Sequence record: OR594180
Strand: one strand, 5' to 3'
Origin: Escherichia phage vB_EcoM_SHAK7693
Length of the DNA: 45,233 nucleotides
A program made the translations under genes and the position numbers. Under the pieces are notes generated by a model, which was not told the origin of the DNA, did not search any database, and was given only the letters and a program-made list of their open reading frames with translations. Positions 2,769 to 43,283 of the stretch are shown here, in pieces. Position 1 is the stretch's first letter; every line of letters begins with the position of its first letter.

Positions 2769-3284
2769 AAATCGCGCGGGCATTAACACCATAAAGGCCG
2801 TGTTTGAAAATTGTATTTTGCATCCTTTGGTTTGGTCCTGGAAATCGAAACGAGCAATTTCATTTTTGTATGCCTTAGAAATCTTGTACGCGTCTGCCAA
2901 ATAGCGCAGAGTGAACCCTATACTGTCGACAACACCCGGTGTGATGTGCGCCACGCGTCTCCAGTCAGGAAAGTTTCCTTCTACAACATCTACCGGAAGT
3001 GTACATATAAGCACACGATTATCGTCATAGAAAGATACACTGCCGTTGTCGTGGTTTACCTCTGCGTAGTTAAATTTAGAAGGCTCTCTCCCTTTGATGT
3101 CTATGAGAGTCCCTTTCTCAACGTTGGTCTTCACATTGTCGCAGAACAATCTATGACCGTCCGTAGACACTATCAATCCTTCAGGGTCTATGTAAAAAGC
3201 GTTCAAATAGTAGCGAACATCATTTTTAGCTCTGCATATTTTTGCCCCTACATACGCAGGGAAAGTAATTACTGTAGTAACCAT
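2763..3284 (-). CDS. DnaN-like protein (beta sliding clamp domain II plus C-terminal half of domain III)
   Basis: Motifs DVRYYLN, STDGHRL, GNFPDWRRV, SIGF..YL.D and C-terminal LMPARF match E. coli DnaN residues ~140-366 from memory; own promoter and terminator. Confidence 0.65.
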   Translation of the reverse strand: MVTTVITFPAYVGAKICRAKNDVRYYLNAFYIDPEGLIVSTDGHRLFCDNVKTNVEKGTLIDIKGREPSKFNYAEVNHDNGSVSFYDDNRVLICTLPVDVVEGNFPDWRRVAHITPGVVDSIGFTLRYLADAYKISKAYKNEIARFDFQDQTKGCKIQFSNTAFMVLMPARFK

Positions 3285-3384: not shown

Positions 3385-4428
3385 ATGAGCTTACTTACAT
3401 CTCTAATCAGTCACCAGATATGGCTGCAACGCGCCGCATCCGGTGAAGTGAAAGACCTTACGCCGTTTATTCAGGAGATGCGGGACGAAATCAAACGGCA
3501 GGTGCTGTTATTCGGCGATGACGGGCGAAGCACCGCGCGACTGAATAAATTGTTACGTGACCTCGAAGAAGCACTAATGGGACTTACAGGCGACTGGCAA
3601 ACAAAGCTGACAGAAGACCTTAAGGAACTGGCGGCGTATGAGGCTGAGTGGAACGTAAAAACGCTGACCGCCAACGTAAACGCGGAATTTGTTACACCTA
3701 CCGCTGAGCAGGTATGGGCCGCCGCCGAGTTTCAACCGCTCTCATTAAGCGACAAGCCGGTTGATTTCACTAAGCTGATGTCAGGTTGGGGTGAAACAGA
3801 AGTTGCGCGCCTGGTAACCGGCGTTAAGATAGGCTTTGTTCAGGGCCAAACCACACGGCAGATTGTTAAGAATGTCGTAGGCGCTGGCGGACTGGCGGAC
3901 ATCTCAGAACGTAATGCAGCTACGGTAATCCGCACTGCGTTGTCTCACGTGTCCAACGAAGCACGCAACGAGACGTACCGCCAGAACGACGACATCATCG
4001 AGAAGTACGAATGGGTGTCCACCCTTGACAGCCGTACCAGTACGATTTGCAGAGCCAGAGACGGAATGACGTGGGAAATTGGTAAAGGTCCGATGCCCCC
4101 GGCTCATTTTGGGTGCAGAAGTACCACAGCACCAGTAATCAGTTCAGAATTCGACTTCCTCGATAAAGGCGCAAAACGTGCGGCTAAGGGCGCAGACGGA
4201 GGTACTCAAGTAAGCGCAGACACAACCTATTACGAGTTCCTCAAACAACAACCGGCGTGGTTTCAGGACCAGGCGCTCGGTCCTGTTCGCGGTAAGATTT
4301 TCCGTAACAGCGGTATATCGCCGGAAGAGTTTCGCGTAATATCTGTAGATGGTTTCGGGAATCCGCTCACGCTTAAGCAGATGGCGGAACTCGATAAACG
4401 TGTTGCTGATTATCTGAAAGGGGAATAA
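3385..4428 (+). CDS. head morphogenesis protein (Mu F / SPP1 gp7-like)
   Basis: Motifs TICRARDG and HFGCRS; RBS GGAGGG before ATG 3385; track ORF start 3328 overlaps promoter. Confidence 0.75.
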   Translation: MSLLTSLISHQIWLQRAASGEVKDLTPFIQEMRDEIKRQVLLFGDDGRSTARLNKLLRDLEEALMGLTGDWQTKLTEDLKELAAYEAEWNVKTLTANVNAEFVTPTAEQVWAAAEFQPLSLSDKPVDFTKLMSGWGETEVARLVTGVKIGFVQGQTTRQIVKNVVGAGGLADISERNAATVIRTALSHVSNEARNETYRQNDDIIEKYEWVSTLDSRTSTICRARDGMTWEIGKGPMPPAHFGCRSTTAPVISSEFDFLDKGAKRAAKGADGGTQVSADTTYYEFLKQQPAWFQDQALGPVRGKIFRNSGISPEEFRVISVDGFGNPLTLKQMAELDKRVADYLKGE

Positions 4429-35611: not shown

Positions 35612-37875
35612 TCCAAATCCTCCTCTGTCACTGTCAGCATTTCATTCGGTTCGTATATTGTCTTCGGAATCTTGTTATCCGTTATTCGGGTGTTCAACCT
35701 GTAACGGCCAGGTATTATCTGATTGTTTTCGTCGGTCCCTGGCACAAGATACCCCGCCTCAACCATTTTCTTAATCTTCCCGCGTTCTATAGCTTCTTTG
35801 GAGTTAAACGCCTTCGCGTTGGGGTCAGACTGTGCGAGCTTATTTGCCGCGGCTACTGTGATACCCTCGTTGCCGTTGTAGGTTCCTTCTGCCAGTTCAA
35901 ACGCCGCGAGTATCGTGGACTCGGAACTGTTGACGGCGTTCTCTACGGTTTTACGTACGTTTTGTTTACCTTCGTTAGTTAACCTTTCTTCCCGCTCTTT
36001 CTCCTCGTCAGTCTTGAACGGCTCGAAACCCCACGGCATCAGCACAAGCGCCTTGTGCGGCTCAGGAAGGTCGAGGTTTATGATTGTGCCGTATTCCTCT
36101 GTGCTACCGAGGAACTCAACCGCACGGTACTCTTTCGGCGGTGGTGCTTCACGGAACTGTACTGACTCAAGCACCATTCCAACCGTTTTCTGTTGGGGGC
36201 CGTGCTTAAATTTAGAGTGGTATACGTTTATCTGACGGTCGGTAGCGCGCTCAATTGTCAGTTCTACGTCAACACCGGCATACAGCGCCCCACTGCCACG
36301 GGCTTTCTTTCCACCCTTCGGCGTATGGTGGACAGCACCCACCGCGGCTTTAGTCGCGTCGCGTACTTCTTTCAGGATGGCGATAACTTTACCCATGCCG
36401 ATTGCCGTTGATGAACTGTTCTCGTCGAACTTATCAATCGTCAGGGCCAGCGTCTGGTTAAGGGTGTCGAACGCGACCATTCCGATAGGTTCACCCCCAG
36501 CAGTTTCGCGCATTAACTTAATCAGGTTTTTCAGTTTTCCGACTTCGCCCATGTCGATAACATGTACATAATCTTTACCTTCCGCGCCGTATTTAGCGGC
36601 TAGAGCATCAATACGTGTTCGCGTAGCTGCACCACCTTCACCATCAATATAGAAATGGTGGCAACGCTGGGTATCAGCCCCGGCAAACCGGTATCCGGCG
36701 GCGCTCAGGTACATCATCCCCAGCGTATAGAACGATTTATACGTACCGGACTCACCGACAATATCCCATATGCAATCCGACGGCATATAACCTTCAACGA
36801 CGAAATCAGCCTTTACCGGTTCCGGTAGCTCGTCCTCCTCTGAGCCATCATCGTCTTCCAGGTCGTCCAGGCTGCATGAAACAGATTCACGCGCACCCCA
36901 TCCGATAGCCTCGGCGACTTCACTGAACGGCAGCCCGGTCGCATCACACGCATACTTCCACACCTCTTTCGGCGACATGCCTTCGGTTGCCGTAATGTCA
37001 GTGTCGTGGATCATGGTTACGTTCGGCGCTTCGTAGCCCTCGCGCGGGAAGCACAGCAGGAAGTCGTCCGGCCGCGGCGTAGGGTCGCTGTAATTTTCTG
37101 CATGTTCCGGCGTAGCTGGCATCTTAAGGCCGCGGAGCGTCATAACACCGCCGTACTCAAACGCCAGCGCCTCAAACGCATCAGTAAACGCGGTACGCAG
37201 TTCTTCCGGTATCTGGTAATCCGATGCGCTGCTAACGTCAACGGCGGGGATACCTTCCAGTAACTCGTCCGGGTCAATCAGGTCGTTGCGGCGCGACCAG
37301 ATAACCGTAGAGCCAACCGGCGGCAGGTACATCGGTTGTGACAGAGTAAACCCGCTGCGGTCAGCGCCCATGCCTTTGAAGAAGTGCTCAAGCAAGCCAT
37401 GACGAACACGGATGATGTCACCACCCTCAACAGGACGGGCCATCGGCATGACGACGCGAAAGCGTGGTGACTCATCGGTATGGGATGCCGTGGTGTAGAG
37501 GCACATAGCCAGGCGGCTGCGCTTAACCAGGCGCACAGCTTCCTGATACTCTTCCGGTGTTGCGCTGTCGAAGTCCAGATAGGCGAGCGACGATTTGCTT
37601 ACAGACGCGTCGCAGCGATAGAAGAAGCCTTTACGCGCTTGCTTAAAGTCACCGGTTTCCGGGTCTTTTACGGCGCTGTGCGTAGAGTCGCACGCGGCAG
37701 TGATATAGCCAGGCGCGGTCTTCGGGTTAATTCCGTCACGAACAACATCGAGTGGCTGGATTAACTCTTTCAGGTCGTCCAGTGTTGCCGTGTGGGTGGT
37801 TCTGACGTTTATATCCTTTTTCTCTGCCCGCGCGTTGCGACGAGACCACGAGTAGGATAAAATTACATCGGACAT
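35608..37875 (-). CDS. putative primase/helicase (RecA-like ATPase)
   Basis: Walker A GESGTYKS in central domain; 755 aa; large N-terminal domain. Confidence 0.55.
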   Translation of the reverse strand: MSDVILSYSWSRRNARAEKKDINVRTTHTATLDDLKELIQPLDVVRDGINPKTAPGYITAACDSTHSAVKDPETGDFKQARKGFFYRCDASVSKSSLAYLDFDSATPEEYQEAVRLVKRSRLAMCLYTTASHTDESPRFRVVMPMARPVEGGDIIRVRHGLLEHFFKGMGADRSGFTLSQPMYLPPVGSTVIWSRRNDLIDPDELLEGIPAVDVSSASDYQIPEELRTAFTDAFEALAFEYGGVMTLRGLKMPATPEHAENYSDPTPRPDDFLLCFPREGYEAPNVTMIHDTDITATEGMSPKEVWKYACDATGLPFSEVAEAIGWGARESVSCSLDDLEDDDGSEEDELPEPVKADFVVEGYMPSDCIWDIVGESGTYKSFYTLGMMYLSAAGYRFAGADTQRCHHFYIDGEGGAATRTRIDALAAKYGAEGKDYVHVIDMGEVGKLKNLIKLMRETAGGEPIGMVAFDTLNQTLALTIDKFDENSSSTAIGMGKVIAILKEVRDATKAAVGAVHHTPKGGKKARGSGALYAGVDVELTIERATDRQINVYHSKFKHGPQQKTVGMVLESVQFREAPPPKEYRAVEFLGSTEEYGTIINLDLPEPHKALVLMPWGFEPFKTDEEKEREERLTNEGKQNVRKTVENAVNSSESTILAAFELAEGTYNGNEGITVAAANKLAQSDPNAKAFNSKEAIERGKIKKMVEAGYLVPGTDENNQIIPGRYRLNTRITDNKIPKTIYEPNEMLTVTEEDLE

Positions 37876-37932
37876 GTTGTATTTCCTTCAGCAAGTAATT
37901 TGGCCTCGGCGCTCTAACGTCGGGGCTTTCTT

Positions 37933-38166
37933 TTATTCCAGGTCTTCTAAAGTGGCGGCCATTCCGCGAACTTCAGCAACAGCGCTATATTTCCCACCAA
38001 CATTTTTCACGACACCGGATTTAACCAGTACCCTCAACGACCCTTCAATAATGGCTGAACTATAGTACTTAAAATAACTACGGCGCAAGTCCATAACGCT
38101 GCACGACCCTTTTTTGCGGGTTAACGAAACGACCGCCGTAAATACGCGTGACTGGAACTCGGTCAT
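37933..38166 (-). CDS. hypothetical protein (77 aa)
   Basis: ORF between regulator and primase/helicase. Confidence 0.45.
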   Translation of the reverse strand: MTEFQSRVFTAVVSLTRKKGSCSVMDLRRSYFKYYSSAIIEGSLRVLVKSGVVKNVGGKYSAVAEVRGMAATLEDLE

Positions 38167-38333
38167 TTAACGTTCTCCTTAATCCACGCTTCCACTTTCT
38201 CTGGGTCAAACGTACCCGGCTGCCGGCGGCCCATAATGCGGATACAACAATCCGGGAACTTCCCACTCTTTAACCAGTTATTAAGCGTGCGGCGAGTAAC
38301 CCCAATACGCTCAGCTACCTCATTCTGTGTCAT
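38163..38333 (-). CDS. AlpA-like HTH DNA-binding protein
   Basis: MTQNEVAERIGVTRRTLNNW helix-turn-helix; RBS GAGGG. Confidence 0.55.
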   Translation of the reverse strand: MTQNEVAERIGVTRRTLNNWLKSGKFPDCCIRIMGRRQPGTFDPEKVEAWIKENVK

Positions 38334-38365
38334 TCTCAAACCCTCATTATCAGTCAACGAAACCA

Positions 38366-38394
38366 AGTATACATTGCGAATAATGGGAAATCAA
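38366..38394 (-). promoter_or_regulatory. sigma70-like promoter (TTGATT-N17-TATACT) for minus-strand early operon
   Basis: Hexamers and spacing read from sequence. Confidence 0.4.
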
Positions 38395-38764
38395 ACATAA
38401 TCGCACCTATTGACATTATGGAAATCTTCGTTTAAGGTGCTTCTATATCTTAGTTACTTTTATTCCTGTTCACCTTGTAAGAATGTTTAACCCGTGCGTC
38501 AAGCAAAGGGTTAAACACAGGCTTACTGAACATTAGAATTATAGTAACTTTCCTTCCTAAGTATCTCCAGTTGCCTTGGGCAAGCTCTATTCTCATCGGC
38601 AGCATATATCTTAAGTATCTGATTTTCTTAAAGTGCCGTAGATTCGCAACCGTAAAAATGTAACGATTATTGGGCAGGCCTTAAGCCTGCCCTTTAGTTA
38701 CCAAGTAATAAGAATAAAGGCACAACCTTCCCCGAAGAATCACAACGGCAACGTAACTATTCTC

Positions 38765-38793
38765 TTGCACACCCCAATATAATAGGATACTAT
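38765..38793 (+). promoter_or_regulatory. class-A promoter (TTGCAC-N17-TACTATTCA)
   Basis: Conserved element; extra AACTATTC half-site about 20 bp upstream. Confidence 0.5.
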
Positions 38794-38827
38794 TCACTTA
38801 TCGGAACGAGACAGAGGAGTTGGGGTT

Positions 38828-39097
38828 ATGTTTAAGAAGGGTCAGTTGGTGAAAACGAAACGCGGTGGGCAGTACGTAATAGTGTTGCAGGACGAGAACG
38901 AGTATGACGAGGATAATATAGTCGACGTATGGGGCCTGGTAAGAAAGAAACCCGGGTTCGCCTTACGCGATAATCTGGAATTAATTGGCAACAATTTTAA
39001 ACTCAAAGGGGTATTCGATGGCGGACTGAAAACCTCATTCACAACGGCATCGAATCATGATGCTTGTGCCGACGACTCTGAGGGAGGTTGCCGTTAA
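38828..39097 (+). CDS. hypothetical protein (89 aa)
   Basis: RBS GAGGAG; first gene after class-A promoter. Confidence 0.45.
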   Translation: MFKKGQLVKTKRGGQYVIVLQDENEYDEDNIVDVWGLVRKKPGFALRDNLELIGNNFKLKGVFDGGLKTSFTTASNHDACADDSEGGCR

Positions 39098-39288
39098 TGA
39101 AAATACGTATAACTGATGTTGATTATATGAGCCCGCGCGATGGTGACTATTTGCCGCTTAGTTACTGGGGTGTTGTCGTAGGGGATGAATTTAATGTCAC
39201 CCACGCCTATCCCGATATGTTCATTATCAAATGCGACGCTGAGTATGTAGTTGTGTACCCAAGTGAGTGTGAGGTTCTGGAGGACTAA
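39097..39288 (+). CDS. hypothetical protein (63 aa)
   Basis: RBS GAGGGAGG before ATG 39097. Confidence 0.4.
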   Translation: MKIRITDVDYMSPRDGDYLPLSYWGVVVGDEFNVTHAYPDMFIIKCDAEYVVVYPSECEVLED

Positions 39289-39291
39289 GTT

Positions 39292-39447
39292 ATGAGAGAA
39301 GCATTCGAACGGTGGGCCGTCGTCGAGGGTCTGCCCGTTAATAAGGGTTCGAAGAAAGAGTACCTGAACGTTAAGACGCGTCTCGCGTGGCGGGCGTGGA
39401 AAGCTGGTGTGTTGTCTGTTGTGTTGTCTGTTGCGAATCCGAGGTGA
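39292..39447 (+). CDS. hypothetical small protein (51 aa) containing 12-bp tandem duplication
   Basis: Hand-translated; GTGTTGTCTGTT x2 encodes VLSVVLSV. Confidence 0.35.
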   Translation: MREAFERWAVVEGLPVNKGSKKEYLNVKTRLAWRAWKAGVLSVVLSVANPR

Positions 39448-39450
39448 GAT

Positions 39451-39651
39451 ATGGGTAAGTGGATTAAGTGTAGTGGGATGCTGCCGGGCAATGGGTATAC
39501 GGATAAGGAGTTCCTGGTGTATGAAACGTTGAATAACGCAGTGCAGCACGATTATTACATCGTCCCTGATGATGTGAGAAAGCCTTTCTGGAATCACTAC
39601 GATAAGTTTGTTACCCACTGGGTGCCGTTACCCGAGCCGCCGGAAGTGTGA
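39451..39651 (+). CDS. DUF551-like protein
   Basis: C-terminal VTHWVPLPEPP motif. Confidence 0.45.
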   Translation: MGKWIKCSGMLPGNGYTDKEFLVYETLNNAVQHDYYIVPDDVRKPFWNHYDKFVTHWVPLPEPPEV

Positions 39652-39692
39652 TGTTATATTGTAACAATAGTTTGGGATTTTACTGAGTGACT

Positions 39693-39730
39693 TACGCTGC
39701 TACACAGCAGCGTATCATTTTTCTCATTTT
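39693..39730 (+). terminator. rho-independent terminator
   Basis: TACGCTGCT-ACAC-AGCAGCGTA then T-rich run. Confidence 0.55.
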
Positions 39731-39807
39731 TGTTCTATTTCACCAAACGCAACAATCGAAGCGACTATTGCAGGAGATGCAACAATACAAACACCAATAA
39801 AATTTAC

Positions 39808-39836
39808 TTGCACACTGGGATAGAATAGGCTACTAT
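39808..39836 (+). promoter_or_regulatory. class-A promoter (TTGCAC-N17-TACTATTCA)
   Basis: Conserved element. Confidence 0.5.
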
Positions 39837-39969
39837 TCATTTACACGAACGAGGGGGGAGACGGAATATGATTCCTGGGCATTAGGCGAACTGGTAGATG
39901 CTTACGAAATAATGGGTAGCACTTCGGTGCGCGACGGTGACACTAAAGCGATAAAAATGGGGGTTGAGG

Positions 39970-40416
39970 ATGAGTAACAAAAACGAGGTATTCGAGTACC
40001 TGATTGGCCAGTTACGGCAGCAGGTAAATGGCAACCAGTGCGAAGACCTGGCGCACGAGGTGTTGTCACTCAAGAATCAGTTACGTGATGCGTCAGAACA
40101 TATTAAGGAGTTGCATAAGGCGTTGGCTACAGCTACAGGTGACGTAGGCGCTTATATAGCAGCAGAGCAATCTGGTTGCCGTAAGGAAGATACTCAGTAC
40201 AACGCCTGGAGGCCTCATTATGGTGCACGACAACCTGTGCCGGATGGGACTATGGTATTTATCCGGTATCGCAACGGGGAGGAGCCGAAACACAGTGTAG
40301 CAGCAGAAAAGCGGTCGTGGATTTGGGATGGAACATACGCAGACATAGTGGAATACAAGATTGACACACAGGAATGCGAACACGAGTGGTATTGGTATAA
40401 CAGGTGGGTTAAATAA
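39970..40416 (+). CDS. hypothetical protein, paralog family member 1
   Basis: Shares CRKEDTQ and TQECEHEW motifs with 40879-41238. Confidence 0.45.
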   Translation: MSNKNEVFEYLIGQLRQQVNGNQCEDLAHEVLSLKNQLRDASEHIKELHKALATATGDVGAYIAAEQSGCRKEDTQYNAWRPHYGARQPVPDGTMVFIRYRNGEEPKHSVAAEKRSWIWDGTYADIVEYKIDTQECEHEWYWYNRWVK

Positions 40417-40617
40417 ATGACCTCACTACTTTTCATCTGGGCACTGACCGCGGGCCAGTTACAGCTAGCGGCAACAGAAACGTTTTACTCACTGGAGGCG
40501 TGCCAGGCTGCGGCACGCAACGCAGAGAACGCGCACTTCCTGTTTCAGGATAAGCCGATTGATACTGAGGTGCGCGCGACATGTTCAACGAAACGATTAG
40601 CTAAGCAGGAGAAATAA
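40417..40617 (+). CDS. small protein with N-terminal hydrophobic signal-like segment
   Basis: MTSLLFIWALTAGQLQLAA hydrophobic N-terminus. Confidence 0.4.
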   Translation: MTSLLFIWALTAGQLQLAATETFYSLEACQAAARNAENAHFLFQDKPIDTEVRATCSTKRLAKQEK

Positions 40618-40618
40618 G

Positions 40619-40882
40619 ATGGTACAGAGATACGAGATAATAAGATGGGGTCTGCCGGAGATGGCTAAGTACCCATACGGTGACTACGTTGAGTATGATA
40701 GCTATAAGGAACTGGAAGACAGTTTCCAGGACTACATAACGACTACGGACATGGAAATAGAAGGGCTTGCGGCGAGACTGGCGGAAGTAAACGCCGAGTT
40801 ACAGAAATACAAAGACCAGTTCCCGGATTACGTCGAGTGCGCGAACTGTGGGTCAGTTACTCATGTGGAAGGGGTGGAATGA
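40619..40882 (+). CDS. hypothetical protein, paralog family member 2
   Basis: MVQRYE N-terminus and ELQKYKDQ motif shared with member 3. Confidence 0.45.
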   Translation: MVQRYEIIRWGLPEMAKYPYGDYVEYDSYKELEDSFQDYITTTDMEIEGLAARLAEVNAELQKYKDQFPDYVECANCGSVTHVEGVE

Positions 40883-41238
40883 TGGTACAGAAATACGAGG
40901 TTCGCGGTACCGAATTAGGTGGCGATGCATTCTACGAAGATTGGGTTGAGGTAGTTCGCTACGAAGATTACGCGAAACTCGAAGCCGAGCTACAGAAATA
41001 TAAAGACCAGTTACGCGATTCTTCGGTACAGATTAAGGAGATGCAGAAAGATATAGATGAGTTGCAGCGAGAGGTGCAACATAAGACCGAAGCACTAGAC
41101 TACCTTTACGCAAACCAGGTATCGCCAGGGCAATCCGTTTGCCGTAAAAACGATACCCAGGAATGTGCGCACGAGTGGAGTAGGTACATTGTACACCCCT
41201 ATAGAAAGATATGCTTGGTATGCGGAGTGAAGGAGTGA
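40879..41238 (+). CDS. hypothetical protein, paralog family member 3
   Basis: MVQKYE, ELQKYKDQ, CRKNDTQECAHEW; C-terminal CxxC. Confidence 0.45.
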   Translation: MMVQKYEVRGTELGGDAFYEDWVEVVRYEDYAKLEAELQKYKDQLRDSSVQIKEMQKDIDELQREVQHKTEALDYLYANQVSPGQSVCRKNDTQECAHEWSRYIVHPYRKICLVCGVKE

Positions 41239-41402
41239 CGTTAGCAACTGACATCCTGAAACACAGCGGCAAAGCGCCGCTGTCACCACGTAAAAGACAT
41301 TTCAACACGCATCCGACGTATCTTGAATTGCATGAGTGCCGGAAGACACCCGCACAACGACTGGCTGAATATTGGAGAAAGCATGACTACTATCGCATTT
41401 GA
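41235..41402 (+). CDS. hypothetical small protein (55 aa)
   Basis: GTG start with RBS GAAGGAG, GTGA overlap. Confidence 0.3.
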   Translation: MTLATDILKHSGKAPLSPRKRHFNTHPTYLELHECRKTPAQRLAEYWRKHDYYRI

Positions 41403-41823
41403 CGGTAAGACTATGGCCTGTGATACCCGGGTTACGTGCGGAAGCAGTTACTATAATACCGACACTAAGATATACGAGAATGATTTTTATATTATCGGAG
41501 TAGCCGGTGACGCGGGTGTCGGAACTATGCTCGTAGACTGCCCGTATATCCTCCAGGCCAGACATTATGACTTCGATTTCGAAGCCCTGGTGTTTGCTAA
41601 AGACACGCGGAAACTGTATAAAGTCGCGTTCTATAAATCGTGGGATTGCACTCTTAGTTCAGTTATCCTCGTCGCCGACAAATTCTCTGCCGTTGGGTCT
41701 GGTTCTCCGTACGCTCTGGCCGCCATGTATTTAGGTAATACCGCTACACACGCTGTTATGGTAGCGGCGGAGTTCGACACGAACACAGGCGGCAAGATTA
41801 TTACCAAACCATTATTCGGATAA
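41383..41823 (+). CDS. HslV/proteasome-like Ntn-hydrolase protease
   Basis: N-terminal M-TTI (Thr1 nucleophile after Met removal), conserved Lys ~33, GSGSPYALAA motif; alignment to E. coli HslV done by eye from memory. Confidence 0.6.
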   Translation: MTTIAFDGKTMACDTRVTCGSSYYNTDTKIYENDFYIIGVAGDAGVGTMLVDCPYILQARHYDFDFEALVFAKDTRKLYKVAFYKSWDCTLSSVILVADKFSAVGSGSPYALAAMYLGNTATHAVMVAAEFDTNTGGKIITKPLFG

Positions 41824-41839
41824 TTCCTAACCGTGGTAT

Positions 41840-41875
41840 CCTCCAGGTACAGCATACTAAATATGCACCTGGAGG
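41840..41875 (+). promoter_or_regulatory. hairpin sequestering the holin ribosome-binding site
   Basis: Perfect 9-bp inverted repeat CCTCCAGGT...ACCTGGAGG; right arm contains the GGAGG upstream of TTG start. Confidence 0.5.
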
Positions 41876-41882
41876 ATTCATC

Positions 41883-42191
41883 TTGGATAAATTTACTGAA
41901 ACTGTGACAGGCTGGCTTCTGGCTGCCGCACTAGCTGGCGGGGTAATAGGCCTACGGCAACACAAAGCCACTATTACTGGTCCTGTCGATGCTCTCTGTT
42001 TTCTCGCCACTGGATTTGCGTGCGCCGTATTCGGTGCACCTCTTGCCGCTCAATGGTTCGGTATCGCAGGTGAACGCGAAATAGCAGGCCTTGGGTTCAT
42101 CATTGCTATTCTCTGGATGCCCATCTATTCCCGCCTCTCCGGTATCGTCGCCGGAGAATATATCGCACGTCGAGGAGGCACAGATGAATGA
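41883..42191 (+). CDS. holin-like membrane protein
   Basis: Several hydrophobic helices; directly upstream of lysozyme; TTG start. Confidence 0.5.
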   Translation: MDKFTETVTGWLLAAALAGGVIGLRQHKATITGPVDALCFLATGFACAVFGAPLAAQWFGIAGEREIAGLGFIIAILWMPIYSRLSGIVAGEYIARRGGTDE

Positions 42192-42456
42192 GTTATTCTG
42201 GTTCGGTGGTATGCTGGCAATCGGAGGCGCATCGCTGTTTAATGTGTATCACCCCCGCGTGGACGACGGACTATTTGGCCGGGTGCTCTATATCCTGACT
42301 GCTATTGTCTGCGCCGCCGGAGGCATTCACCTGTTACAGGGCAGCATGTCGCCCACGTTGCCTGAGACCTTAATCACATTAGTTGCGCTGCGTCAGATTC
42401 GTCAGGCGTGGCTATCATATGGAGGATATAAGCGTGTCTCGAAACATTTCCGATAA
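42184..42456 (+). CDS. second lysis-cassette membrane protein (holin/antiholin-like)
   Basis: Two hydrophobic helices; RBS GGAGG; overlaps holin stop. Confidence 0.45.
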   Translation: MNELFWFGGMLAIGGASLFNVYHPRVDDGLFGRVLYILTAIVCAAGGIHLLQGSMSPTLPETLITLVALRQIRQAWLSYGGYKRVSKHFR

Positions 42457-42953
42457 TGGCTTACATTTCTGCGCCGCGTTCGAGGGATTCCGCGGAATTG
42501 CGTATCGTGCTACGCCGAATGAGAAGTACCTGACTATTGGGTACGGTCACTATGGGCCGGACGTAACACCAGGTAAGACCATCACCCCTGGCCAAGGCCT
42601 CCTGTTACTGAATCGCGATAGGCCAAGGCCTCCTGTTACTGAATCGCGATATGGCTAAGGCCGTAGCTGCGGTTGATGCAGCAGCACACCATTCGCTGAC
42701 ACAGGCGCAGTTCGACGCCGTGTGTGACCTGGTCTATAACGCCGGTGCAGGTGTGATTGCAGCTACTACTGGCACGGGTAAGGCGCTGCGTTCCGGTGAT
42801 GTTGCGACGCTACGGGCTAAACTGGCGCTGTTTATCAACCAGAACGGCAAACCGCTACTCGGCTTGCGCCGTCGTACAGCGGGTCGTCTGGCGCTGTACG
42901 ACGGTAAACCATGGCGGGAGGCAGAGGCTATTGGGCGCGCGGTGAAAGGTTGA
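42419..42953 (+). pseudogene. endolysin (GH24 lysozyme) interrupted by a 31-bp tandem duplication
   Basis: N-terminal ORF has EG..AY...TIGYGH; C-terminal ORF has QFDAV..L.YN.G lysozyme motifs; frames differ by +1 at duplication. Confidence 0.7.
42590..42651. repeat. perfect 31-bp tandem direct duplication
   Basis: GGCCAAGGCCTCCTGTTACTGAATCGCGATA at 42590-42620 and again at 42621-42651. Confidence 0.9.
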
Positions 42954-43017
42954 CACCTAAGACTAATCCGACGATACTTAAATCACCTCCTGTTCCCTCC
43001 CTCTGCTCTCCAGTTTT

Positions 43018-43052
43018 CTCCCGGCCCTGACCCAGCCGGGATTTTTTTTTAT
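43018..43052 (+). terminator. rho-independent terminator after lysis cassette
   Basis: CCGGC...GCCGGG stem followed by T9. Confidence 0.6.
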
Positions 43053-43072
43053 CTATTTTCTGTAATGACTAG

Positions 43073-43101
43073 TTGACTATTATCCTGGACCCTATTATAT
43101 T
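43073..43101 (+). promoter_or_regulatory. sigma70-like promoter (TTGACT-N17-TATATT)
   Basis: Near-consensus hexamers with 17-bp spacer. Confidence 0.5.
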
Positions 43102-43133
43102 TACTTCATCGACAACGAGAACGGAGTAGAGAA

Positions 43134-43283
43134 ATGAAAATCACAGATATCGATGCATTCGAAGACGCACAACTGATGGCACGTATCGCTGTTAGTAACC
43201 TGAGCTGCAATATCCCGGCGGATGCGTTCTGGTCCGCTGCGATGCAGACCCTTAAAGCAGCTTATGCAGGAGAGAAGAAATGA
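43134..43283 (+). CDS. hypothetical small protein (49 aa)
   Basis: RBS GGAG; first of a chain of overlapping small ORFs. Confidence 0.35.
   Translation: MKITDIDAFEDAQLMARIAVSNLSCNIPADAFWSAAMQTLKAAYAGEKK

Follow-up and report, generated by a model that had tools for sequence, protein, structure and literature searches.

The closest described relatives of the gene analysed here are the PPH proteins, which Fuchs et al. (2021) presented as the first branch of the proteasome family that is truly viral: proteins of ~140 residues from Caudovirales, found in bacteria mostly in a prophage context and rarely as cellular genes, which lack helix H2, the S12/H5 elements and a propeptide. In their scheme PPH belongs to group I, which radiates from BPH and also holds HslV, AAH and CPH; neither an informative genomic context nor a co-occurring AAA+ partner was reported for PPH, and for Actinobacteria their Table 1 lists PPH and not HslV. 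In HslV itself, the C-terminal tails of the unfoldase HslU enter pockets between subunits that involve Phe54 and Phe57 (helix H1), Ala79 and Lys80 (H2) and Gln114 (PMC6429459). Herein we analysed a 45,233-nucleotide stretch of DNA from Escherichia phage vB_EcoM_SHAK7693 (record OR594180; “the window” means this whole stretch), a Kagunavirus (Guernseyvirinae, E. coli siphovirus), and in it a gene of 146 codons next to the lysis cassette. The gene is a member of the published phage PPH subfamily, assigned by its match to the described features and to PHROG_1040; the family was described in 2021, orthologues are already annotated, and the gene adds no new kind. We read its product as a minimal N-terminal-threonine hydrolase of the proteasome-beta/HslV type, an accessory protease of the infection phase that works independently of HslU and is not a component of lysis, and we put the probability of this reading at roughly 0.8.

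The gene and its family

The gene ends at a TAA (41821-41823) and encodes a protein that opens MTTIAFDGKTMACD and includes the pieces MTTIAFDGKTMACDTRVTCGSS...AVGSGSPYALAAMYLG...FDTNTGGKIITKPLFG. Its start was placed at ATG 41383 because the second residue is Thr in 127 of 130 aligned relatives (M-T-T-I/V being by far the commonest start), because 41383 is the exact left edge of nucleotide homology to every related phage, and because of the position of the Shine-Dalgarno sequence; with this start, the protein therefore has no propeptide. The program-made list of open reading frames (ORFs) also holds a longer frame from a TTG at 41323, which was rejected as a propeptide-bearing start, since the ATG is where both homology within the family and conservation at the nucleotide level set in, and the Shine-Dalgarno sequence precedes it.

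Relatives are plentiful, with 295 close homologues, 376 phage records that match the protein, and 3999 cluster representatives at 50% identity in an exhaustive profile search (E<=1e-3); among the best 150 listed of these representatives, nearly all measure 135-165 aa and most start MTT[I/V]. PPH is thus very common, its clusters including most Jerseyvirus Salmonella phages, while outside phages we found one prophage example and one cellular (chromosomal) orphan. The PHROG_1040 profile, “peptidase HslV family”, matched at E=4.4e-35, with positions 14-154 of its 277 aligned to residues 1-142, and the labels that orthologues carry in GenBank/RefSeq are “peptidase HslV family”, “HslV family peptidase”, “ATP-dependent protease”, “proteasome subunit beta” and “ATP-dependent protease subunit”.

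Matches to characterized proteins became significant only with family profiles, those of the single sequence in PDB, Pfam and NCBIfam being weak or below threshold. Against solved structures the single sequence reached BPH at E=0.05 and HslV at E=0.52, through its GSGSPYALAAMY motif; it failed the HslV equivalog hidden Markov models (HMMs) TIGR03692 (12.8 bits for a cut-off of 157.75) and NF003964 (12 for 137), and scored far under the cut-offs of the NCBIfam proteasome equivalogs. A profile built from 61 diverse members, by comparison, matched HslV of T. maritima at 3.7e-12, human beta5 at 1.2e-11 and BPH at 3.7e-10. The beta5 alignment placed query residues 2-143 on beta5 2-179, with Thr1 on Thr1; beta5 and BPH aligned to the end, whereas most HslV alignments, including that of E. 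coli HslV, ended near profile position 113-115. The protein thus appears to stand equidistant from HslV, BPH and the 20S beta subunits rather than to be an HslV. A recent capture of host hslV was considered and rejected, given the low identity to HslV (about 20-28%) and the different architecture.

Predicted active site and fold

Conservation was scored in 130 diverse relatives (~30-40% identity), and HMM alignments were used to assign the proteasome equivalents. Judged from these alignments, the catalytic set appears complete, with counterparts of Thr1, Asp17, Lys33, Gly47, Ser129, Asp166 and Ser/Thr169 (Table 1). The GSGSPYALAAMY motif aligned with GSGGPYALAA of T. maritima HslV and with GSGSPYALGAMY of BPH, and the MTTI start is common to the PPH protein and E. 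coli HslV, while FDxxTGG, the C-terminal motif, belongs to the “RDxxSGG” type of 20S beta. Within FDxxTGG, Asp132 is conserved in 96% and Gly136 in 92% of the relatives, and position 135 is Thr in 67%, Ser in 19% and Cys in 14%. A natural active-site variant was observed in gp67 of Klebsiella virus KpV2811 (locus L007, 3001-3489), where Gly-Cys-Gly replaces Gly-Ser-Gly and TDS replaces TGG.

A first AlphaFold2 model from 25 close homologues was unusable (predicted local distance difference test, pLDDT, 42.7) and was replaced by one built on a 120-sequence alignment, which reached a pLDDT of 95.2 and a predicted template modelling score of 0.89. The top Foldseek matches of this model in the PDB were only HslV, BPH and 20S beta subunits, at a probability of 1.00 and, among the first 40 matches, with template modelling scores of 0.64-0.75 normalised to the query. 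The predicted fold is accordingly a beta-sandwich of the proteasome-beta type. In the N-terminal part of the model, strands at residues 3-6, 10-14, 16-19, 22-25, 30-32 and 36-42 are followed by a helix H1 of only six residues (46-51) and a loop; beyond the loop come strands 66-72, 77-83, 93-96 and 102-105, helices 108-116 and 121-131, and a last strand at 139-143. H2, H5 and S12 are absent from the model, the H1/H2 region has a deletion of 13-20 residues relative to HslV and beta5, and the H3-H4 link is shorter. Because H1 is vestigial and H2 absent, the alpha-beta-beta-alpha sandwich is predicted to have lost nearly all of one helical layer.

In BFVD, 44 viral proteins were related by structure (E<=1e-3), some of them 260-280 aa long with C-terminal extensions, such as a 275-aa protein of Aeromonas phage 4L372XY and the 263-aa A0A1W6DWU9 (54% identity over the core). 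These longer relatives are PPH cores extended at the C-terminus and may represent what Fuchs et al. call the “RPC” type.

The original prediction, made from the letters and a list of ORFs, had read the gene as an HslV/proteasome-like N-terminal-nucleophile (Ntn) hydrolase and had named HMM and structure searches against proteasome beta and HslV as a way to check it. Such searches gave significant profile and fold matches and an Ntn fold is predicted, so that the profile searches, the pLDDT-95 model and two independent fold searches agree with that reading. The ORF at 41383-41823, with its 146 aa and M-TTI start, is as it had been described in every particular; the Lys that had been assigned to the Lys33 position of HslV is Lys29, which the HMM alignments put there, and the likeness of the GSG motif to HslV extends to the T. 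maritima HslV and BPH motifs. Homologues elsewhere, whose absence would have counted against the prediction, are present as the 295 close ones and the ~4000 cluster representatives. The HslV label needs correction: the kinship to HslV as an Ntn-hydrolase holds, but the protein is not an HslV proper, since it matches PPH and has the C-terminal FDxxTGG of the 20S-beta type.

Proposed function and competing readings

The steps of the proposed mechanism are drawn from the established enzymology of HslV and the proteasome. Removal of Met1 by the host methionine aminopeptidase would expose Thr1, as may be expected because Thr is a permitted penultimate residue for this enzyme and E. coli HslV, with the same MTTI start, is processed in this way. 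The O-gamma of Thr1 would then attack the scissile bond, with the free alpha-amine, Lys33 and Asp17 acting as a proton relay and Gly47 providing the oxyanion hole. Activity would probably arise only on homo-oligomerisation, as in the relatives HslV and BPH, and during infection the enzyme might cleave peptides, unfolded proteins or particular proteins, needing neither an unfoldase of its own nor canonical HslU docking.

The behaviour of the gene among related phages is consistent with an accessory role. The right third of the window is 88-91% identical to fFiEco03, NTEC3, phiSD1 and others, fFiEco03 (MT711524.1) being the closest GenBank relative of the PPH region. The block of PPH plus lysis genes (41383-43283) is only 77-85% identical to its relatives, for flanks that are mostly at 88-93% (the replication genes, about 36000-38800, and the region beyond 43100), and the sequence from about 39000 to 41382 (~2 kb before the PPH ATG), above all 40640-41382, is mosaic or not alignable. 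The nearest metagenomic protein is 96% identical to this PPH protein, and GenBank phages reach at most 82%. Between Kagunavirus alleles, dN/dS is 0.12 over the gene and 0.057 for residues 1-43, the catalytic N-terminal third, at a dS of about 1, and synonymous divergence is saturated relative to the flanks; where retained, the PPH gene is under purifying selection. Together with the many homologues, this places the gene well beyond a chance reading frame. In fFiEco03, homology to the window returns at 41806; what is left of the gene is an 18-nt stretch, AAACCGTTATTAGGATAA, that codes for K-P-L-L-G-stop, and tblastn found no PPH homologue in this phage. PPH therefore appears, from these alignments, to be a presence/absence polymorphism within Kagunavirus that arose by deletion.

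Elsewhere the gene wanders. In Klebsiella phage KpV2811 it lies between the large terminase and portal genes, in Microbacterium phage LeeroyJenkins among small genes ahead of the terminase, in an Undibacterium prophage after the small terminase, and in one bacterium as a chromosomal orphan; in Rhodobacter phage RcXuper (locus L009, 1233-6453) it directly follows the genes for RNA ligase and polynucleotide kinase and lies two genes ahead of those for nicotinamide mononucleotide adenylyltransferase/ADP-ribose pyrophosphatase and nicotinamide phosphoribosyltransferase. The family HMM matched all four annotated phage proteins, with E from 1e-29 to 1e-38. A survey of 80 IMG/VR loci found no conserved partner, none of the 62 neighbouring Pfam families occurring in more than 3 of 27 PPH lineages, although this survey used crude greedy longest-ORF calling by which small partner genes could have been missed; the commonest neighbour families were TerS, TerL, portal and integrase. 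No AAA+ unfoldase of the Clp/HslU type was among the 25 neighbour families listed for these 27 lineages, and no such gene was found near PPH in the annotated relatives of the window.

These observations bear on two other readings, each of which ties the protein to a known partner or programme. The MTTI start shared with E. coli HslV, the public label “ATP-dependent protease subunit” and the fact that enterobacterial hosts encode HslU would suit a phage HslV that recruits host HslU (ClpY) into a hybrid ATP-dependent protease with phage-chosen specificity, and a partnership with host HslU had also been raised in the original prediction. Canonical docking to host HslU nevertheless seems unlikely, because in the model H2 (half of the pocket for the HslU C-tail) is absent and H1 vestigial, these being the helices that bear Ala79/Lys80 and Phe54/Phe57, and because a family member with the full catalytic set occurs in the Microbacterium phage LeeroyJenkins, whose host is actinobacterial, a phylum without HslV in Table 1 of Fuchs et al. 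With the HslV equivalog models failed by a wide margin, most HslV alignments stopping short where those of beta5 and BPH run to the end, and no AAA+ gene co-occurring in the survey of Fuchs et al. (2021), we consider recruitment of HslU improbable, although some non-canonical use of a host unfoldase is conceivable. A role in the lysis programme, for instance the processing or degradation of holin, antiholin or endolysin to set the timing of lysis, is suggested by position: PPH lies directly upstream of holin-holin-endolysin in Kagunavirus and Jerseyvirus (both Guernseyvirinae genera), within Guernseyvirinae it forms one co-inherited homology block with the lysis genes whose left edge is exactly the PPH ATG, and one paper puts the gene in a “host lysis module”, by annotation alone. 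Yet fFiEco03 has deleted PPH and kept the hairpin and the same lysis cassette, the holin type occurs at >=60% identity in ~119 phage records for roughly 35 E. coli-type records with PPH (both counts being approximate), the gene elsewhere neighbours terminase and portal, RNA-repair and NAD (nicotinamide adenine dinucleotide)-salvage genes or small early genes, and the stable hairpin between PPH and holin speaks against translational coupling. Because fFiEco03 lost PPH yet retains the cassette, because the adjacency is lineage-specific and because holin records outnumber PPH records, PPH is probably ancestral in the subfamily, dispensable for the lysis cassette and an accessory gene. We see only a very slim chance for the lysis role, and the lysis-module assignment in some genome papers is unsupported by the evidence here. 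As to the location given in the original prediction, between the small genes and the holin and immediately upstream of the lysis cassette, it is correct for this phage, with the holin start TTG 41883 (phrog_2359) downstream, but the adjacency is found only in Guernseyvirinae and fFiEco03 shows the cassette without PPH.

Two further readings concern what the fold would do. The protein could share the fold without being a protease, as a connectase-like, sequence-specific ligase/transpeptidase or as a catalytically silent decoy by which host HslV is poisoned or HslU sequestered; connectase has likewise lost the first helix pair (completely there, only H2 in PPH), the bared sheet could serve as a new interaction surface, and PPH activity rests on prediction. 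PPH is, however, without the helical S3/S4 insertion of connectase, and a silent decoy fits poorly with a catalytic apparatus that is near-invariant over about 4000 clusters; of all the readings weighed here, we find this one the hardest to believe. An elaboration of the protease reading would make PPH a self-sufficient, unfoldase-independent protease whose missing H1/H2 give it a new quaternary architecture, and an accessory weapon of host takeover or counter-defence that destroys particular host proteins. Presence or absence among near-identical Kagunaviruses, saturated synonymous divergence, the wandering position and the neighbours in RcXuper all fit such a role. This support is circumstantial, the RcXuper neighbours (genes of kinds linked to RNA repair and the restoration of NAD, as in counter-defence) being anecdotal; PADLOC defence models gave no match, and we regard the elaboration as speculative and rather unlikely.

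Several points weigh against the reading of PPH as an accessory, HslU-independent threonine protease. The single sequence scored 19.1 bits against the Pfam Proteasome family PF00227 and did not reach the gathering threshold of 22.4, although some relatives carry a precomputed PF00227 hit. The searchable literature contained no biochemical or experimental study of any PPH member, only the 2021 survey and annotation-level mentions, and the activity as a peptidase, the removal of Met and the oligomeric state are inferred. The loss of H1/H2 would bare one face of the beta-sandwich, and the quaternary structure may thus differ from the rings of HslV and BPH; activity could also depend on a partner encoded elsewhere. 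Connectase shows that a protein of this fold may act as a ligase and not as a protease, and, given the shared homology block, a lineage-specific functional tie to lysis within Guernseyvirinae is, strictly speaking, still conceivable.

Should PPH turn out to be a minimal threonine protease that acts autonomously, no smaller proteasome-type enzyme would be known, and it could help to explain how Thr1 is activated by ring assembly. An intact PPH in an E. coli phage and the natural relative fFiEco03, which cleanly lacks it, form a ready-made isogenic-like pair for phenotyping, and the unlikely docking to HslU points experiments to self-assembly and substrate discovery.

Upstream of the PPH gene is a run of small genes on the plus strand, of which PPH is the last, and directly downstream, beyond a hairpin, come holin 1, holin 2 and endolysin in that order (Table 1). 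Two of the upstream genes, of 150 and 133 aa, are paralogues (both phrog_6094) whose N-terminal part is coiled-coil-like and whose C-terminus is rich in Cys and His (...QECEHEW / ...QECAHEW); the 87-aa gene between them (phrog_29624) has an ELQKYKDQ motif in common with the 133-aa paralogue. The core stem of the hairpin (41838-41848 / 41867-41877) holds in its 3' arm the holin Shine-Dalgarno sequence GGAGGA (41871-41876), 6 nt before the TTG. The hairpin is kept in Kagunavirus relatives and in the PPH-less fFiEco03 (locus L090, 4376-4424), and at the same place Jerseyvirus has a hairpin of different sequence with a U-run, covering the Shine-Dalgarno sequence of a GTG/TTG holin start (locus L006, about 2970-3010). 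The hairpin may serve to control holin translation, to terminate transcription, or both. The endolysin is split into two ORFs because a perfect 31-nt tandem duplication (42590-42620 = 42621-42651, two copies of GGCCAAGGCCTCCTGTTACTGAATCGCGATA; Tandem Repeats Finder period 31) shifts the frame. This duplication is absent from three relatives (phiSD1, K-01 and an IMG/VR relative) and is either a sequencing/assembly artefact or the mark of a genuinely defective or split endolysin.

Table 1 Features of the PPH locus (positions in the window unless another genome is named).
Feature	Position	Strand	Remarks
PPH-family proteasome-beta/HslV-like Ntn (threonine) hydrolase gene	41383..41823	+	146 aa, without propeptide
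Shine-Dalgarno sequence GGAG	41374..41377	+	5 nt before PPH ATG; read from sequence
Thr2 codon, Thr1 equivalent	41386..41388	+	Predicted N-terminal nucleophile after Met removal; 98% Thr, otherwise Ser; aligned to Thr1 of beta5 and HslV
Asp14 codon, Asp17 equivalent	41422..41424	+	98%; aligned to Asp17 of HslV and beta5
Lys29 codon, Lys33 equivalent	41467..41469	+	98%; aligned to Lys33 of HslV/proteasome
Gly42 codon, oxyanion-hole Gly47 equivalent	41506..41508	+	100%; aligned to Gly47 of beta5
Gly105-Ser106-Gly107, Gly128-Ser129-Gly130 equivalents	41695..41703	+	100/92/100%; aligned to GSG of HslV, BPH and beta5
Asp132-x-x-Thr135-Gly136, equivalents of Asp166, Ser169 and Gly170 of 20S beta	41776..41790	+	Aligned to RDAYSGG of beta5
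Hairpin between PPH stop and holin start	41833..41881	+	Stable; minimum free energy -30.1 kcal/mol, z -4.8
Holin 1, TTG start	41883..42191	+	phrog_2359, E=5e-29
Holin 2, ATG start	42181..42456	+	phrog_2508, E=8e-31
Endolysin in two frames (42419-42658 and 42651-42953)	42419..42953	+	phrog_7 positions 552-613 and 614-709
phrog_6094 paralogues and the 87-aa phrog_29624 gene between them	39964-40416, 40619-40882, 40837-41238
PPH remnant in fFiEco03 (L090, MT711524.1)	4350-4367 (window 41806-41823)		Before hairpin and same lysis cassette

Comparison with known systems

Compared with HslV (ClpQ), the PPH protein is ~30 residues shorter, has a vestigial H1 and no H2, so that half of the HslU C-tail pocket would be gone, carries the C-terminal motif FDxxTGG instead of one of HslV type, fails the HslV equivalog HMMs and has no hslU partner gene. 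BPH (PDB 5ovs/5ovt), the product of a chromosomal bacterial gene, measures ~200 aa, has complete H1/H2 helices and a pore loop that is long and acidic, and was solved as a tetradecameric double ring, whereas PPH is known here from its sequence and a predicted model. From the 20S beta subunits (human beta5, archaeal beta) PPH differs in being ~55 residues shorter and in lacking the propeptide, H2, H5 and an alpha-subunit partner. Connectase has lost the first helix pair completely, where PPH loses only H2 (Fuchs et al., 2021), and owes its specificity to the S3/S4 helical insertion that PPH lacks. Within PPH, the Guernseyvirinae members are set apart by a six-residue insertion at 82-87 (AFYKSW) and by the lack of the Trp that most members have after H1. 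Set against the published description of PPH, the protein shares the length of ~140 residues, the occurrence in tailed phages and prophages, the Thr1/Asp17/Lys33/Gly47 equivalents and the lack of a propeptide, H2, S12/H5, an AAA+ partner and a conserved context; it differs in nothing substantive and represents a new allele of this family.
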